Below, one piece after another: positions 6,516 to 8,473 of a DNA stretch of 64,000 nt. The translations under genes and the position numbers were made by a program. Each line of letters begins with the position of its first letter. Position 1 is the first letter of the stretch. The notes under the pieces were generated by a model. It was not told the origin of the DNA. It did no database searches and saw nothing but the letters and a program-made list of their open reading frames with translations. The stretch is from a phage: NCBI GenBank assembly GCA_025830695.1, contig GCA_025830695.1_4111.2; one strand, written 5' to 3'.

Positions 6516-6629
6516 TTAAACACAAGTAGACAGGGGAAGCTCCTAGTGAACAACCTTTATGTACAGGCGAATTGTTAAAATTCAGCCTGGACAAATGCGA
6601 TCACTAGGATTCTCCCCAGGCTAAACCCC

Positions 6630-6688
6630 GTAATCATAGGTAGTCATAAGTAATCATATATAAACATTTAAGTAATCATTTATAATCA
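6630..6688. repeat. GTAATCA heptamer direct-repeat cluster (further copies at 6840-6856)
   Basis: GTAATCA at 6630, 6650, 6672, (ATAATCA 6682), 6840, 6850 in non-coding DNA. Confidence 0.5.
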
Positions 6689-6906
6689 CTGTAGTGATCA
6701 GTAGTGAGTACTAGAGTACAGGAATGTTCACGTTTAATCAAGAACGTAGCAGTACTGATATGTCACTAAGTAGGCAGAGGAAGTCTGCCGTACTTTGTAG
6801 TTTCCAAGCTCCTTTTCCATTTTGCAAATTACATCAAATGTAATCAAAAGTAATCACGCAATGATTAGTACTGAATTATTACTTTCACCTTAATTTCAAT
6901 TACCCC

Positions 6907-6924
6907 TTTACCCTTCGGGGTAAA
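6907..6924 (+). other. stable hairpin with TTCG (UUCG) tetraloop
   Basis: TTTACCC-TTCG-GGGTAAA, flanked by ATTACCCCTT direct repeats. Confidence 0.5.
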
Positions 6925-7133
6925 ATTCCATTACCCCTTGAGGCTCCAGCAAAAAGTTGGTTAGTACTCCATCCTAAATCTCGATCCTAAAAATTTTGGA
7001 GTACCTATGAAATAAAAGTTGGATCTTCGAAAGTTGAAATTTACGTTGGGACGTTTATGATTTGTGGGATATAATGATGTTTGTAGTCGGGTAGTTCTCA
7101 AGAATATCAGTACTGAATAATGAAAGAAAGCTA

Positions 7134-7161
7134 TTGACATTATGATTCAGTACTGTATAAT
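7134..7161 (+). promoter_or_regulatory. sigma70-like promoter in intergenic hub
   Basis: TTGACA 7134-7139, 16 bp, TATAAT 7156-7161; no ORF follows (candidate small RNA). Confidence 0.5.
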
Positions 7162-7345
7162 GTTCTACATAGGGTGATGAGTTGCTGCGAACAATTCATT
7201 TACTCTACCTCCTGTCGTGAGACAGTACAGAAAAGATAGTTCCTCCTGTGGTGGTACATCTTTTTGAACCTCATATGAAAATCGTAATAACAGTACTGAT
7301 ATTAACAGAATGGTGTCAGTACTGATTTTAATCTAAATCATTATG

Positions 7346-7365
7346 CCACCAGCTTGTGCTGGTGG
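7346..7365. other. palindromic hairpin made of two inverted Chi octamers
   Basis: CCACCAGC-TTGT-GCTGGTGG; GCTGGTGG at 7358-7365 (plus) and 7346-7353 (minus). Confidence 0.55.
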
Positions 7366-7529
7366 GTTCCCTCTAACAGTATTCAGTACTACATGATAGT
7401 CTTCATCCTCCTAGGGTAACATAGTGAGGGCTATGATGGCAGTACTGAATACTCCCTTTCAAAAGATAGATCTATGGTATAGTACTGACGGATTTTGGGC
7501 GTAGTTACCCTGGATGGATTTTGGACGTA

Positions 7530-7680
7530 GATATGTCTAGCCCTCCAGAAGTCTGGAAGTAAAGATGGCTATCCATCTAGACGGCTAAACGGCTAGATTT
7601 CTGGATGGCTAGACGTTTGGACGGCTAAACGGCTAGATGGTTACACGTCTGGAAGTATAGACGGCTAAATCAAAATTTTA
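7530..7680. repeat. iteron-like direct repeats (GGCTA[AG]ACG / CTGGAAGT / TCTAGACG)
   Basis: about 8 copies of GGCTA(A/G) and repeated ACGGCTAAACGGCTAGAT within 150 bp of non-coding DNA. Confidence 0.5.
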
Positions 7681-7890
7681 TTTTGTTTTTTCCAATAGTT
7701 CCCCTACCGCGTGGGGATAGTTTCCCCGCAGTATCTGGAGTTAGATTTTTCTGAATCTGGAATCATTATCTTATAAACTGGGGGCAATGTCAACGGTCTG
7801 GACGGATATTTTTAAAAATTTTTTCAGTACTGAATTTTGGGCGTAACTATGCACCCGGTGGGCTTGAGTCTTTCTCGACTTGATGGAACT

Positions 7891-7918
7891 ATTATACAGT
7901 ACTGGAAAAATAAAGCAA
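7891..7918 (-). promoter_or_regulatory. minus-strand sigma70-like promoter (TGCTTTA -35 region, TATAAT -10)
   Basis: reverse complement reads TTGCTT-16bp-TATAAT, then conserved leader ATCAAGTCGAGAAAG...CCCACCGGGTGC. Confidence 0.4.
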
Positions 7919-8106
7919 TACCCTGGAAGCAAAAAAGTTTTAATTAATTTGCTTGCTATCCTGGGCCGGACTATGGTACTATATTTCAGTACTGAGAAAG
8001 TGCGTTTACCTGCTAGGGTGCGGGAGTGTATCCTTTTTTTATATCTTGAATTTTGGGCGTAATTCCGCACCCCCTGGGGTATCCGCTTTCTCGCGTCTAT
8101 GTAGTA

Positions 8107-8134
8107 ATTATACGCTTTTTCAGGATCAAGTCAA
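8107..8134 (-). promoter_or_regulatory. minus-strand sigma70-like promoter
   Basis: reverse complement TTGACT-16bp-TATAAT; leader contains CCCCAGGGGGTGC. Confidence 0.4.
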
Positions 8135-8414
8135 TACCTAAAAACAAAATAATTGAAAATAATTTAACGCGTTTAAACGGCCCGTAAAGCCCTGGAATGA
8201 TTGGAATGGTGCAAATGTATAGCTTAGGTGTATTAATGCGTTAGAATGCGTCTGAGGCCGTTTTACGGGGTATCGGGATGATTTGGTGGATTGATTCAGT
8301 ACTGAATAATAGTACTCCTATATAGAAAGATAGTTCCCCTGGATGGTTGCAGTACTGAATGACAGTTCCCCTATATAGAAAGAAAACTATTTTAAAAGTA
8401 CATGTAGAAAGTAC

Positions 8415-8473
8415 TTGCAAACTATGTTTAAAGGCGTATAATGTTTTACATCGAGAGCGGGAACTCTTCCCGC
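8415..8473 (+). promoter_or_regulatory. early promoter + 5-prime hairpin cassette
   Basis: TTGCAA 8415-8420, 16 bp, TATAAT 8437-8442; hairpin GCGGGAA-CTC-TTCCCGC 8457-8473. Confidence 0.7.

Follow-up and report, generated by a model that had tools for sequence, protein, structure and literature searches.

A gene-free leader with a MetJ-type operator array at the probable left chromosome end of a Rak2-like jumbo coliphage

The window analyzed here, a stretch of 64,000 nucleotides, belongs to an Asteriusvirus, i.e., a Rak2-like jumbo coliphage. Positions 6516-8497 of the window appear to be the concatemer junction and the left-end leader of the phage chromosome. A probability of about 0.6 is assigned to this reading, which rests on comparisons with related genomes. 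The original prediction described this region as a non-coding hub of repeats that could serve as a replication origin, a packaging signal, or a binding array for a regulator. It overlooked the chromosome end at 6768|6769 that lies within the region. The packaging option has been upheld, as a terminase-made left end seems to map inside the region and its flanks are conserved in other genera.

The GenBank records of six relatives begin at exactly window position 6769. Some of these records may have been re-oriented to match one another. In the relative fEgEco12, direct terminal repeats of 20,993 bp were determined with PhageTerm and confirmed with restriction digests (PMC13070987). Both 20,993-bp copies are identical, position 1 of fEgEco12 corresponds to window position 6769, and the end of its repeat corresponds to 26274. 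From the six shared starts and the mapped end in one relative it follows that 6516-6768 is the last unique DNA and that 6769-8497 is the start of the repeat. By identity to these relatives, the left chromosome end made by terminase is placed at 6768|6769 (...CAGTACTGATATGTCACTA^AGTAGGCAGAGGAAGTC...), and by homology the direct terminal repeat is predicted to span 19.5 kb, 6769-26274. Fixed ends at defined nucleotides, as in terminal repeats of the T5/SPO1/Rak2 type, are likewise indicated by homology. The right boundary of the repeat (26255-26300, plus strand) reads ...GGGTAACCT^TAGCGACTTC...GTATTAC, where the cut falls between 26274 and 26275, and the pattern CT^TAGC...GTATTAC is kept in Muenster and CBB. 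The window holds one collapsed copy of the repeat, which carries about 48 small ORFs. These are small host-takeover genes. The untranslated leader makes up the first 1.7 kb of the repeat (6769-8497). On the other side of the junction, an alignment of nine Asteriusviruses shows that the last unique DNA (6516-6768, plus strand) is rich in indels and variable, save for a heptamer cluster and the 19 nt adjoining the cut. Only part of it is found in fEgEco12.

The prediction that the region holds no credible ORF was correct, and the gene-free stretch is even longer than proposed. The ATG at 8441 falls within a -10 hexamer (TATAATG), and relatives annotate the first early gene as a CDS of 363 nt. 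Since the true start of this gene is at 8498, the gene-free stretch covers 6516-8497. The gene is preceded on the plus strand by the promoter TTGCAA-16-TATAAT and a hairpin-bearing 5' UTR (8415-8497). Three mechanical ORFs on the minus strand, one of 99 aa (7771-8070) and two of 59 aa each (6961-7140 and 8241-8420), gave no Pfam match, and each is disrupted by frameshifts or stops in five to six of nine close relatives. A search with the covariance models of Rfam 15 gave no match at the gathering score anywhere in the window, nor did 6400-8600 give any at E <= 1. All fetched Rak2-like records that begin at their end have a gene-free start of 1.3-1.8 kb.

Among the Asteriusviruses, the whole region is conserved about as well as the flanking coding DNA. 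Three collinear blocks, which were not described originally, are kept at the nucleotide level in other genera, with 70-94% identity between genera that have only about one third of their proteins in common. Block 1 (6944-7012, plus strand) is an inverted repeat, AGTACTCCA ... TGGAGTAC, around ATCCTAAATCTCGATCCTAAAAATTTT (fold z = -2.2). Its counterparts are found in XbC2 (54-120), Munch (86-128), Serratia BF (113-134), and GAP32 (2899-2935). Two further motifs were absent from the original prediction. The palindrome CAGTACTG has 11 copies, one of them in each of two 44-nt direct repeats (8287-8383, plus strand), and ATTTTGGGCGTA has four copies that are confined to 6516-8497.

Several elements surround the putative cut. 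The left flank, CAGTACTGATATGTCACTA^ (6750-6768, plus strand), is nearly identical in Klebsiella phage Muenster (CAGTACTGATATGCCACTA^), whose repeat was also determined with PhageTerm, and the flanks are conserved in both Muenster and CBB. In CBB, CAGTACTG stands 17 nt ahead of the cut. The first bases of the chromosome (6769-6794, plus strand) form the imperfect palindrome AGTA-GGCAGA-ggaag-TCTGCC-g-TACT (fold z = -3.9). Within it, GAAGTC lies at +12 to +17 (6780-6785), and the +12 position is shared by Serratia BF, Erwinia pEa12, XbC2, and CBB. The stem of the palindrome is gone in phage A4, where GAAGTC is retained. The GTAATCA heptamers were found as predicted, with exact copies at 6630, 6650, 6672, 6840, and 6850, all on the plus strand. 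Thus 5 of the 25 copies in the window fall within 227 bp. The left cluster (6630-6700) is spaced at 10-11 bp, has a period of 10 according to TRF, includes the degenerate heptamers GTAGTCA (6640) and ATAATCA (6682), and lies 139 to 70 bp before the cut. The right pair (6840-6856) lies at +72 and +82 from the end. In this right group, phage vB_Ec-M-J has three copies of the 10-bp unit. The left cluster is a candidate set of recognition repeats for the small terminase subunit, and the heptamers together with CAGTACTG beside the cut may be terminase recognition elements. A UUCG hairpin at 6907-6924 (plus strand, TTTACCC-TTCG-GGGTAAA) is present as described, but its statistical support is weak (z = -1.9; 6 of 200 shuffles fold as well).

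The Chi-Chi palindrome at 7346-7365 was also verified. It reads CCACCAGC-TTGT-GCTGGTGG with an 8-bp stem (z = -3.0), and it places exact Chi sites (5'-GCTGGTGG-3') at 7346 on the minus strand and at 7358 on the plus strand. It is established that RecBCD coming from a double-strand end has to meet Chi from its 3' side, and the site at 7346 faces in this way the left end, which is 578 bp away. The Chi/Chi hairpin is conserved with a different loop in the Salmonella phage Munch. The terminal repeat contains 11 Chi sites versus 0.18 expected, and the other 44.5 kb of the window contain none; one-mismatch variants of Chi average 0.08. Chi density is 0.56 per kb in the repeat versus 0.09 per kb in non-repeat DNA, or about six-fold. 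In fEgEco12 there are 9 Chi in 56 kb of other DNA, so that Chi is not exclusive to the repeat. The layout of Chi in fEgEco12, Muenster, and CBB is as here, and the orientation of Chi tracks the coding strand of the genes.

Promoters are present on both strands, as was predicted, but they are not enriched (11 found versus 13.0 +/- 3.7 in shuffles). On the plus strand, a sigma-70 promoter with a 12/12 match (TTGACA-16-TATAAT, 7134-7161), with CAGTACTG filling the end of its spacer, is invariant in eight Asteriusviruses, and a hairpin resembling an intrinsic terminator is followed by a T run (8015-8041). On the minus strand, the leftward sigma-70 promoter P_L (TTGACA-17-GATAAT, 7765-7793, 11/12 match) is conserved across genera in eight phages. 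It reads through two hairpins into the operator array. Hairpin 1 of this leader is AGATT-CAGAAA-AATCT (7743-7758, minus strand). Hairpin 2 (7713-7727, minus strand), GGGGAAACTATCCCC, has a stem that covaries across genera. All five pairs change on both sides, 91% of the cells are paired versus 67% in shuffles, none of 500 shuffles matched this pairing, and the G-U pairs are compatible only with the minus strand. The most conserved element of the leader is ACGCGGTAGGGGAACTATTGGAAAAAAC (7685-7712, minus strand; alignment of eight phages from several genera). It looks like a Shine-Dalgarno sequence with a start codon and a mini-ORF of 3-13 codons, and the start-like codon is TTG in Asteriusvirus and ATG in the other genera.

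Two short leftward cassettes lie beyond P_L. Cassette 1, which is conserved block 3 (8045-8134, minus strand), consists of the promoter TTGACT-16-TATAAT (8134-8107, minus strand, 11/12 match), a hairpin with a GAGAAA loop, and then TACGCCCAAAAT. Over 52 nt it shares 94% identity with Munch, and for XbC2 and Serratia BF the values are 88% and 91%, respectively. Cassette 2 (7825-7925, minus strand) has an early-type promoter with CAGTACTG-TATAAT, which is followed by a hairpin with a GAGAAA loop, a CACCnGGTG palindrome, and then TACGCCCAAAAT. Copies of ATTTTGGGCGTA at 7834 and 8050 close the two cassettes.

The cluster of direct repeats at 7530-7680 is real, but the iteron-like unit GGCTA[AG]ACG proposed for it is not, as the true unit is 8 bp. 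TRF reports periods of 8, 16, 32, and 40, and the 16-mer consensus includes AGACGTCT. The window was scanned with a published MetJ weight matrix and its thresholds (PMC3228920), which require a quarter or more of the consensus score from each unit and no less than the full consensus score from a site (site threshold 12.58). Thirteen consecutive head-to-tail 8-bp MetJ-type operators (metboxes) in one register were identified at 7563-7666. Single boxes have scores of 3.8-10.7 bits, and together they reach 97.0 bits versus the threshold of 12.58. One additional metbox (7547-7554) lies outside the run. Elsewhere in the 64 kb there is only one match, of two boxes, and 200 shuffles never gave more than three boxes. 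As a positive control, the scan recovered the E. coli metJ/metB and metF operators, each with four boxes, as the only sites in 8 kb. The arrays of related phages comprise 13, 14, or 15 boxes and vary in length by whole 8-bp units. These matches bear out the option of a regulator-binding array, and we infer that host MetJ may bind it; the function proposed for the array below is equally tentative. No description of a MetJ-operator array in a phage was found in the searchable literature.

The surroundings of the array differ from those of a host operator. The array adjoins no promoter of the methionine regulon, and there is no gene within 0.8 kb. Because no methionine-gene promoter adjoins it, the array is best described as a met-operator-like binding site outside the host regulon. 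It lies at about +90 to +195 from P_L, and no promoter overlaps it. A repressor operator that starts about 90 nt downstream of a start site is unusually placed. At 0.8 kb from the cut, it is also far for a terminase complex. On the left, two of the four ATTTTGGGCGTA motifs border the array module (7487-7533, plus strand), and this motif also flanks the arrays in BF, pEa12, GAP32, CBB, and Munch. On the right, a short A+T-only tract of 18 nt (7667-7684, plus strand) leads from the array to the conserved element, and its sequence is not kept in other genera.

Such arrays are present in a number of other phages. Metbox arrays in one register are found in Serratia BF, Erwinia pEa12, XbC2, GAP32, and CBB. 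In all, the array was found in three further Rak2-like genera, T5-like phages, and phiKT-like podophages. The Vibrio phage Pontus has 15 metboxes. PSTCR5 and a 118-kb T5-like contig possess metbox arrays (9 boxes; units AGACGTCT and AGACGTCC), as do PGT2 and phiKT, with the nine boxes of PGT2 lying 38 nt from both ends. A T7-like phage has a MetJ-type array in its 260-bp terminal repeat. The array is inside the terminal repeats wherever the ends or the repeat copies are known, and in four genera its distance from the chromosome end is constant at 650-800 bp. In Munch and Muenster, which represent sister genera, clusters of Fur boxes fill the slot of the array and the flanks are retained. Aside from three records that carry host DNA, tblastn (E <= 0.01) found no MetJ homologue in 50,697 phage records, and no ribbon-helix-helix (RHH) family was found among the 48 ORFs of the terminal repeat. 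XbC2 is recorded as a Xanthomonas phage. To our knowledge, Xanthomonadales is not among the gammaproteobacterial orders that carry MetJ. The array of XbC2, set against its host record, counts against the MetJ reading.

The architecture of the region can be compared with several known systems. In T5, Untranslated Repeat Region 3 is the proposed injection stop signal of the left terminal repeat, and its DnaA boxes lie some 0.7-0.8 kb inward of the repeat boundary (Davison, 10.1101/866236; AY587007). Like that region, the one described here is a large gene-free stretch straddling the boundary of a long repeat (1.7-2.0 kb here versus 1.2 kb in T5), is dense in direct repeats, inverted repeats, and palindromes, is conserved among relatives above many genes of the repeat, and contains, about 0.7-0.8 kb inward of the boundary, clustered sites to which a host DNA-binding protein would attach. 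A large, untranslated, repeat-rich, and conserved region of the T5 stop type is therefore present at the inner repeat boundary, with the map flipped. The differences are that T5 has eight DnaA boxes in pairs, while 13 tandem 8-bp MetJ boxes are found here and Fur boxes in the sister genera; no paired DnaA boxes in inverted repeats were found in the region. T5 also belongs to an unrelated phage family, for which two-step transfer is documented. Since no metbox array was found in T5, the analogy is one of architecture and not of sequence. The E. coli met operators (metJ/metB, metF, and others), which are bound by MetJ-SAM, share with the array a tandem, single-register arrangement of 8-bp units akin to AGACGTCT, similar scores per box, and the TA step kept at the unit junctions. 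They have 2-5 units versus 13-15 here, and the phage array prefers the unit AGACGGCT, with G at position 6, and is located not at a methionine-gene promoter but within the leader of a phage, on the downstream side of a promoter.

In P1, Chi is clustered in and near the terminal redundancy (Subramaniam and Smith, 10.1101/2021.07.08.451572; PMC12315714). Both phages have a linear virion chromosome whose terminally repeated DNA is enriched in exact Chi octamers, and at this location Chi can attenuate RecBCD and favor recombination of one repeat with the other. The ends of P1 vary because it packages by the headful mechanism, whereas the ends appear to be fixed here, one Chi pair forms a hairpin, and Chi orientation also tracks the coding strand. 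With regard to cleavage, the pac site of P1 has 4 + 3 hexamers around the cleavage point, with IHF/HU and Dam methylation as accessory factors, and IHF is an accessory factor at cosB of lambda. Short repeats on both sides of the cleavage point are common to these sites and the present one, and the use of accessory host DNA-binding proteins is a feature of P1 and lambda. The repeats differ (GTAATCA heptamers and AGTACT palindromes, candidate terminase sites, are found here), as does the type of packaging, with fixed ends and a 19.5-kb repeat predicted here. The left end of T7 has a terminal repeat and several hundred gene-free bp with strong promoters for host RNA polymerase ahead of the first early gene. 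A repeat and a gene-free, promoter-bearing start precede the first early gene here as well; in T7, however, the leader is below 1 kb and all promoters point inward, while three promoters point towards the end here. We know of no host-repressor array at the left end of T7.

Other explanations of the array were weighed against these data. It is conceivable, though doubtful, that the array acts in trans as a sponge that draws MetJ (or Fur, in the sister genera) away from the host operators with their 2-5 boxes. After replication of the phage DNA, methionine/SAM synthesis or iron uptake would be derepressed to the benefit of the phage, and placement in the terminal repeat would give two copies per genome and early entry. 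In keeping with this, the array is 3-4 times longer than any host operator at a similar score per box (about 7.5 bits versus 6-8 bits), operators of two metabolite-sensing repressors interchange in one slot, the phage collection lacks a MetJ homologue, and unrelated phages also have the array in their repeats; with one exception, the hosts recorded for them are Enterobacterales, Vibrio, or Aeromonas, groups known to bear MetJ. CBB, which is Rak2-like, is also annotated with a Dam-type methyltransferase and therefore consumes SAM. However, an infecting genome brings only about 26 boxes, so titration requires replication, and by that time host transcription may be off already, as is established for T4-type phages. 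A sponge alone also leaves P_L, the hairpins, the border motifs, and the constant distance of 650-800 bp from the end in four genera unexplained. It is unlikely that the region is instead a stop or pause signal for injection in a T5-like two-step transfer. This would have the right end enter first, so that the first-step DNA would be the right repeat copy and the takeover genes on it, with the region at the inner end of that copy. When flipped, the repeat does match the layout of the left terminal repeat of T5, with genes towards the outer end and an untranslated region with host-protein boxes 0.7-0.8 kb inside the inner boundary. The 15-box array of Pontus lies about 8 kb from dmp, which may be equivalent to the stop position of T5. 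Nine of 11 Chi sites (seven of eight in Muenster, seven of nine in CBB) suit RecBCD from the right end, as would fit an exposed right end, but Chi orientation simply tracks the coding strand as well. In addition, a cytoplasmic protein on entered DNA would be expected to favor entry and not to halt it, the rightward consensus promoters by the left end equally suit entry of the left end first, as in T7, and the stop mechanism of T5 is itself just a proposal (10.1101/866236).

It is also quite unlikely that the array is bound for packaging by a protein of the phage itself (the small terminase subunit or an RHH protein that escaped detection) and that the likeness to metboxes is coincidental or convergent. 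The array is always in or beside the boundary of a terminal repeat, series of short repeats are known from the terminal repeats of T7, phased heptamers and AGTACT copies flank the cut, and the check for RHH proteins extends over just 64 kb of the roughly 350-kb genome. Against this, three unrelated lineages with unrelated packaging proteins share the array, including an identical 19-mer, the units in the T5-like phages are the exact MetJ consensus AGACGTCT, and the sister genera carry operators of another host repressor instead. By hand arithmetic, the chance that a random 8-bp unit is within one mismatch of AGACGTCT in some register is about 0.003. The option of a replication origin in the original prediction was not sustained, and it now appears improbable. 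It would require iterons for a phage initiator, unwinding at the A+T tract, and a leftward promoter that supplies an R-loop primer (cf. T4 oriF/oriG). The array does adjoin the A+T-only tract at 7667-7684, a promoter reads in, the module is strongly conserved between genera, and the minimum of the cumulative GC skew of the window is at about 6.0-6.6 kb. The negative skew, however, spans only about 24 kb and coincides with a block of minus-strand genes, so that the minimum is local. The period of 8 bp, versus 17-22 bp for iterons, matches a host repressor operator, Fur boxes replace the array in sister genera with the flanks retained, and a T7-like phage has the array within a 260-bp repeat. 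No DnaA box was found in the region, and no Rep/initiator family was found among the 48 ORFs of the terminal repeat (64 kb of the genome covered). Least credible is the view of the region as debris, i.e., decayed early-gene cassettes between two gene blocks. The promoter-plus-hairpin units in both directions do resemble the neighboring early-gene cassettes without ORFs, and the mechanical ORFs are broken in relatives. Decay is at odds with blocks that are 70-94% identical across genera sharing about one third of their proteins, a covarying helix, an array that changes length in register, and conservation among the Asteriusviruses about like that of flanking coding DNA.

The reading preferred here is that the leader would be a platform for host proteins, with early-type sigma-70 promoters that point both ways, the Chi/Chi hairpin as a site for RecBCD, and 13 operators for MetJ. 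Host MetJ with its corepressor S-adenosylmethionine (SAM) could polymerize on the array. The result would be a block of nucleoprotein, about 100 bp long, that lies 0.8 kb inward of the chromosome end and in the path of the conserved, structured leftward leader transcript from P_L. Such a block could be a cis-acting, cofactor-dependent barrier or landmark at the repeat boundary, and it may correspond to the region with DnaA boxes that T5 has in the untranslated portion of its terminal repeat. Titration of MetJ would then be a side effect.

More broadly, and more tentatively than the placement of the chromosome end, arrays of operators for abundant, metabolite-sensing host repressors (MetJ-SAM, Fur-Fe, and possibly the DnaA boxes of T5) may represent an unrecognized class of interchangeable cis-elements at the terminal-repeat boundaries of unrelated phages, where they would nucleate a host-repressor filament near the chromosome end. 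The lineages concerned would be Rak2-like jumbo myoviruses, T5-like siphoviruses, and phiKT-like podoviruses. If this is true, the filament would link an early or packaging step to the SAM or iron status of the cell, or it would deplete the host repressor.

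A nucleotide search of phage records with 6400-8500 gave 44 matching records at 80-97% identity. Nearly all belong to the genus Asteriusvirus, a group of Rak2-like myoviruses, and are Escherichia/Salmonella jumbo phages with genomes of about 350 kb, such as phAPEC6, PBECO4, and 121Q. Within this genus, the gene-free region (6516-8497) is about as conserved as the flanking coding DNA. Each feature listed for it in the original prediction was found where it had been placed. The claim that it holds no credible ORF was also borne out. Inner ORFs of at least 40 aa have no Pfam match, and in 5-6 of 9 close relatives they are interrupted by frameshifts or stops. 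The region is thus genuinely non-coding. The 99-aa ORF and both 59-aa ORFs were considered as hidden protein genes and rejected, as they have no Pfam match and are disrupted in relatives. The 99-aa ORF (7771-8070, minus strand) is listed as a "hypothetical protein" in coliphage fEgEco12 (g614), E9.1, and ELP-22. It is broken in 5 of 9 relatives and overlaps promoter cassettes, and thus it is probably an annotation artefact. The credible start of the first early gene is at 8498 on the plus strand, which is the start used in the relatives' records. The ATG at 8441 (mechanical ORF 8441-8860, annotated as g01 in fEgEco12) was rejected because it is part of the -10 hexamer, TATAATG. Rfam gave no match, either across the window at the gathering score or within 6400-8600 at E <= 1, and no tRNA or tmRNA was found.

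A chromosome end, between 6768 and 6769, had been missed inside this hub. Direct terminal repeats have been described in Pectobacterium phage CBB (22,456 bp; PMC5259590) and in fEgEco12 (20,993 bp), for which PhageTerm ends and restriction digests agree (PMC13070987). Both 20,993-bp end copies of fEgEco12 are identical. In the alignment, their first base corresponds to 6769, and the repeat ends at 26274. Six records from different laboratories (fEgEco12, vB_Ec-M-J, CRJP21, BF17, E9.1, and ELP-22) open with AGTAGGCAGAGGAAGTCTGCC, which is found at 6769. Thus, 6516-6768 is the last unique DNA and 6769-26274 is the terminal repeat. It has 19,506 bp and is present in the assembly as a single collapsed copy. 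We place the probability that the region is a packaging junction followed by the untranslated opening of a host-takeover repeat at about 0.9.

The flank of the left cut is kept beyond the genus. It reads CAGTACTGATATGTCACTA^AGTAGG in the window and CAGTACTGATATGCCACTA^AGTCCG in Klebsiella phage Muenster, whose repeat is known from PhageTerm. CBB has the palindrome CAGTACTG 17 nt ahead of the cut, and across three genera this palindrome is 12-17 nt ahead of the terminase cut. The hexamer GAAGTC is found at +12 to +17 in Asteriusviruses, Serratia BF, Erwinia pEa12, XbC2, and CBB. A terminal 26-nt palindrome folds well (z = -3.9). It was rejected as a conserved end feature because phage A4 has lost the stem and keeps only GAAGTC at +12; the hexamer, not the hairpin, is therefore what is conserved. 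The right boundary, between 26274 and 26275 (26255-26300), reads CT^TAGC with GTATTAC about 20 nt further on and is kept in Muenster and CBB. Just outside it, here and in fEgEco12, is an inverted GAAGTC (GACTTC), which was dismissed as a shared cut signal since it is absent in Muenster and CBB. A sigma-70-like promoter, TTGACT ... TATAAA, directly follows the right boundary.

The GTAATCA heptamers that had been reported are locally enriched, with 5 of 25 window copies within 227 bp at a period of 10. They flank the left cut on both sides (-139 to -70, and +72 and +82), and their variation is in whole 10-bp units. In Muenster, copies of AGTACT are found in their stead, at 10-bp multiples ahead of the cut. 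The pac site of phage P1 also has phased repeats around its cut. The phased repeats here may bind terminase. The GTAAT-N5-GTAAT spacing of the heptamers (6630-6690 and 6840-6856) resembles direct-repeat sites of response regulators of the OmpR/PhoB family, e.g., GTAAA-N5-GTAAA for CpxR.

Two motifs escaped the original prediction. The palindrome CAGTACTG has 11 copies in the region (6750, 7108, 7148, 7291, 7317, 7440, 7825, 7897, 7987, 8297, and 8350) and 59 in the window, where 0.75 would be expected. The other, ATTTTGGGCGTA, has four copies and is found only in the region. The core of the palindrome, AGTACT, is present 257 times in the window, where about 21 copies would be expected; its density is 6.5 per kb in the terminal repeat and 2.9 per kb in the rest. 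Both coding and non-coding DNA contain the palindrome. Many early promoters have it, either filling the spacer directly 5' of the -10 or, as AAAAGTACTTGCAA, overlapping the -35. A putative phage DNA-binding protein probably recognizes it.

The 48 small ORFs of the repeat (8441-26119) were explored through Pfam. A DksA/TraR zinc finger, a GNAT acetyltransferase, a ParE-like toxin domain, two DUF7249 proteins, and a weak protein-kinase match were identified. This gene content is consistent with host take-over. The early-gene cassettes (8415-8500, 8875-8960, 11230-11300, 15125-15200, and 15355-15430) are uniform. They contain an upstream element with AGTACT, TTGCAA-16/17-TATAAT, and a start near ACAT. 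These are followed by a 5' hairpin that is rich in G+C and in many cases has a loop of the GAAA type, and then by a Shine-Dalgarno sequence and ATG.

The Chi/Chi palindrome that had been noticed in the region is exact. Chi (GCTGGTGG) occurs as 11 octamers in the window (0.18 expected; one-mismatch variants average 0.08), all inside the repeat and none in the other 44.5 kb. Two are oriented for RecBCD entering the left end, including one from the region's pair, and nine face the right end. The pattern is alike in fEgEco12, with 12 sites, in Muenster, which has 8 in its repeat and 0 in the next 20 kb, and in CBB, which has 9 in its repeat and 3 in the next 17.5 kb. Chi is strongly enriched in the terminal repeats of four Rak2-like phages from three genera, and the sites mostly face the right end. 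It is not confined to repeats, as nine sites, oriented with the genes, were counted in a further 56 kb of fEgEco12. Non-repeat DNA has about one sixth of the repeat's Chi density. Six non-repeat sites are within a block of RCC1-like genes. Clusters of Chi in terminally redundant DNA have a precedent in P1, and jumbo phages are mentioned in neither of two papers on Chi (10.1101/2021.07.08.451572; PMC12315714). The repeat of T5 contains only two Chi sites, too few for an orientation test of end protection.

A stretch of 1.3-1.8 kb without genes opens every examined Rak2-like record that begins at its end, i.e., Serratia BF, Erwinia pEa12, Muenster, Munch, and XbC2. These genera have only about one third of their proteins in common with the coliphages, yet three collinear leader segments (6944-7012, 7548-7721, and 8035-8114) are kept at 70-94% nucleotide identity across genera. 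The promoters claimed for both strands are present, with best matches of 12/12 and 11/12, but their count is not above that in shuffles. The TTCG hairpin also exists but is statistically weak. In an alignment of eight phages from several genera, the minus strand shows a conserved order of elements. These are a sigma-70 promoter, P_L (7793-7765, TTGACA-17-GATAAT), a first hairpin, GAT(A/T)CTGC, a second hairpin, the invariant ACGCGGnAGGGGAnCTAATGG, an A-rich tract, an operator array, and the end motif TAC(A/G)CCCAAAAT. The second hairpin has five pairs, each of which changes on both sides; 91% of cells pair versus 67% in shuffles, none of 500 shuffles reaches this value, and slid controls give 29-53%. 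Since the hairpin covaries and its G-U pairs fit the minus strand only, it is very likely that a structured leftward RNA is made and would read into the operator array.

The invariant element resembles a Shine-Dalgarno sequence and start codon with a mini-ORF of 3-13 codons, and the start is TTG in this genus. At 7685-7700 (minus strand) and homologous positions, there is an SD-like AAGGGGA, a start codon, and a mini-ORF (MEK-stop, MEF-stop, MEKTK-stop, MEKLV-stop, and others). It sits between the leader hairpins and the operator array, where it could encode a leader peptide or serve to load ribosomes. Two shorter leftward cassettes (8134-8045 and 7925-7825, minus strand) have the same promoter type and the same end motif, and each has a hairpin with a GAGAAA loop. 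Small RNAs from these cassettes were considered; terminators are lacking, fold z-scores are modest, and one hairpin is strand-ambiguous.

The direct repeats described at 7530-7680 are present, but the iteron-like reading of them did not hold, as the units are 8-bp metboxes of the type bound by MetJ, the methionine repressor of the host. TRF gave periods of 8, 16, 32, and 40 on 7577-7669, and the 16-mer consensus, GGCTAGACGTCTGGAT, includes the metbox consensus, AGACGTCT. A published weight matrix for half-metboxes, with the thresholds given for it (PMC3228920), was used to scan the window. There is a single array of 13 consecutive metboxes (7563-7666, 97.0 bits), and elsewhere in the 64 kb there is one further match of two boxes. 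The 200 shuffles never gave more than three boxes. As a control, E. coli K-12 DNA (8 kb) was scanned, and the operators of metJ/metB and metF were the only hits, with four boxes each (31 and 25 bits). Asteriusviruses possess 13, 14, or 15 boxes and differ by whole inserted GGATGGCT or AGATGGCT units, so the register is preserved. In Serratia BF, Erwinia pEa12, XbC2, GAP32, and CBB, the array has the same position, which is 650-800 bp from the end in phages with a known end, and consists of 13-16 units that share a register. The Rak2-like array is the longest metbox array found in the analysis. Adjoining it is AATCAAAATTTTA (7667-7680), which matches the IHF consensus, WATCAANNNNTTR, and is not kept in other genera. 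The sequence argues strongly for an array of MetJ operators, and host MetJ probably binds it.

BLAST with the array also matched gene-free DNA of unrelated phages. Long arrays (9-15 boxes) are found in T5-like phages of Vibrio and Providencia, in phiKT-like podophages of E. coli, and in a metagenomic contig. By the weight-matrix scan, the T5-like Vibrio phage Pontus has 15 boxes (112 bits), and no array was found in T5 itself. Providencia phage PSTCR5 has 9 boxes with exact AGACGTCT and AGACGTCC units, as does a 118-kb T5-like contig in both repeat copies. Podophage PGT2, and likewise phiKT, has 9 boxes 38 nt from both ends. In the 63.5-kb metagenomic contig (L037), the array is 27-146 nt from the end. 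By record, arrays are at 484-603 in L023 and at 38-109 and 42464-42535 in L024, and are present in L027, L031, and L035. Wherever ends or repeat copies of these unrelated phages are known, the arrays are in terminal repeats, and the 19-mer AGACGTTTAGACGGCTAAA is exactly common to these lineages. The recorded hosts of array-bearing phages are Enterobacterales, Vibrio, and Aeromonas, which are MetJ-bearing groups; the exception is XbC2, which is recorded as a Xanthomonas phage.

Munch (Salmonella) and Muenster (Klebsiella) have the same flanking motifs, and the array slot between them is occupied by clustered repeats of the GAGAATGATAATGATTCTC type. Their match to the box of Fur, the iron repressor of the host, covers 14-17 of 19 positions. 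In 4 kb, Muenster has 11 Fur-box-like sites (787-906, 1073-1097, 1306, and 2422-2446) and Munch has 6 (712-800, 1041, and 2343-2367), versus 0.3-0.5 in shuffles. The main cluster is in the slot of the metboxes in other genera. The arrays in the repeats of three unrelated lineages, together with the Fur exchange, therefore point to a general and so far undescribed use of host repressors by phages.

A MetJ-SAM filament on the array could act in cis as a barrier or landmark near the repeat boundary, where it would lie in the path of the leftward transcript. This reading is favored because the flanking module and the array-to-end distance are conserved and because operators of different filament-forming host repressors appear interchangeable. 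A further reason is the analogous untranslated region of T5, whose DnaA boxes are 0.7-0.8 kb inside the repeat boundary (10.1101/866236). The specific barrier role is tentative. A T5-like pause of injection is a live alternative. The two phages are alike in having an untranslated region with host-protein sites inside the repeat boundary, and they differ in that the region here contains no DnaA boxes; the count of these in the window is at chance.

A repressor sponge acting in trans is live as well, and it is to be weighed against the conserved surroundings and spacing that favor a function in cis. The array may also be bound by a phage protein, another live explanation. A tblastn search with MetJ (E <= 0.01) of 50,697 phage records gave no phage homologue, the only hits being three records that carry host DNA, and a family search found no RHH or initiator gene among the 48 ORFs of the repeat. 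An iteron-type origin had been one of the original options for the repeats and is unlikely, as the region lacks DnaA boxes and the skew minimum is an effect of a minus-strand gene block. This GC-skew minimum, at about 6.0-6.6 kb, was rejected as an origin mark because it stems from a negative-skew block of about 24 kb with minus-strand RCC1-like genes and a small-gene array. The block (1-6600; 330-353.7 kb in fEgEco12) ends exactly at the junction. It holds about 15 minus-strand RCC1-like ("chromosome condensation regulator") paralogues and a plus-strand array of genes of about 60 aa, for which negative skew is unexpected.

The packaging junction, the untranslated opening of the takeover repeat, and the sites for RNA polymerase and RecBCD are securely supported. 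Repeat lengths and ends of relatives are already published. A literature search that left out most subscription journals turned up no description of the leader anatomy, of metbox or Fur arrays, of how Chi is laid out, or of the leftward unit. On MetJ boxes in phage termini, and on promoters or termini of Asteriusvirus, it yielded nothing beyond repeat lengths. An anonymous "non-coding hub" of a 350-kb phage thus becomes a map with a chromosome end, the flanks of its cut site, the start of the takeover repeat, and sites for named host factors. The annotation of many GenBank records is corrected as well, since several of them begin at arbitrary positions and some annotate ORFs in this region that are disrupted in relatives. 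It will be interesting to determine the function of the untranslated regions in T5-type terminal repeats, how phages with fixed ends mark their repeat boundaries, and whether phages sense or rewire the SAM and iron metabolism of the host at entry.
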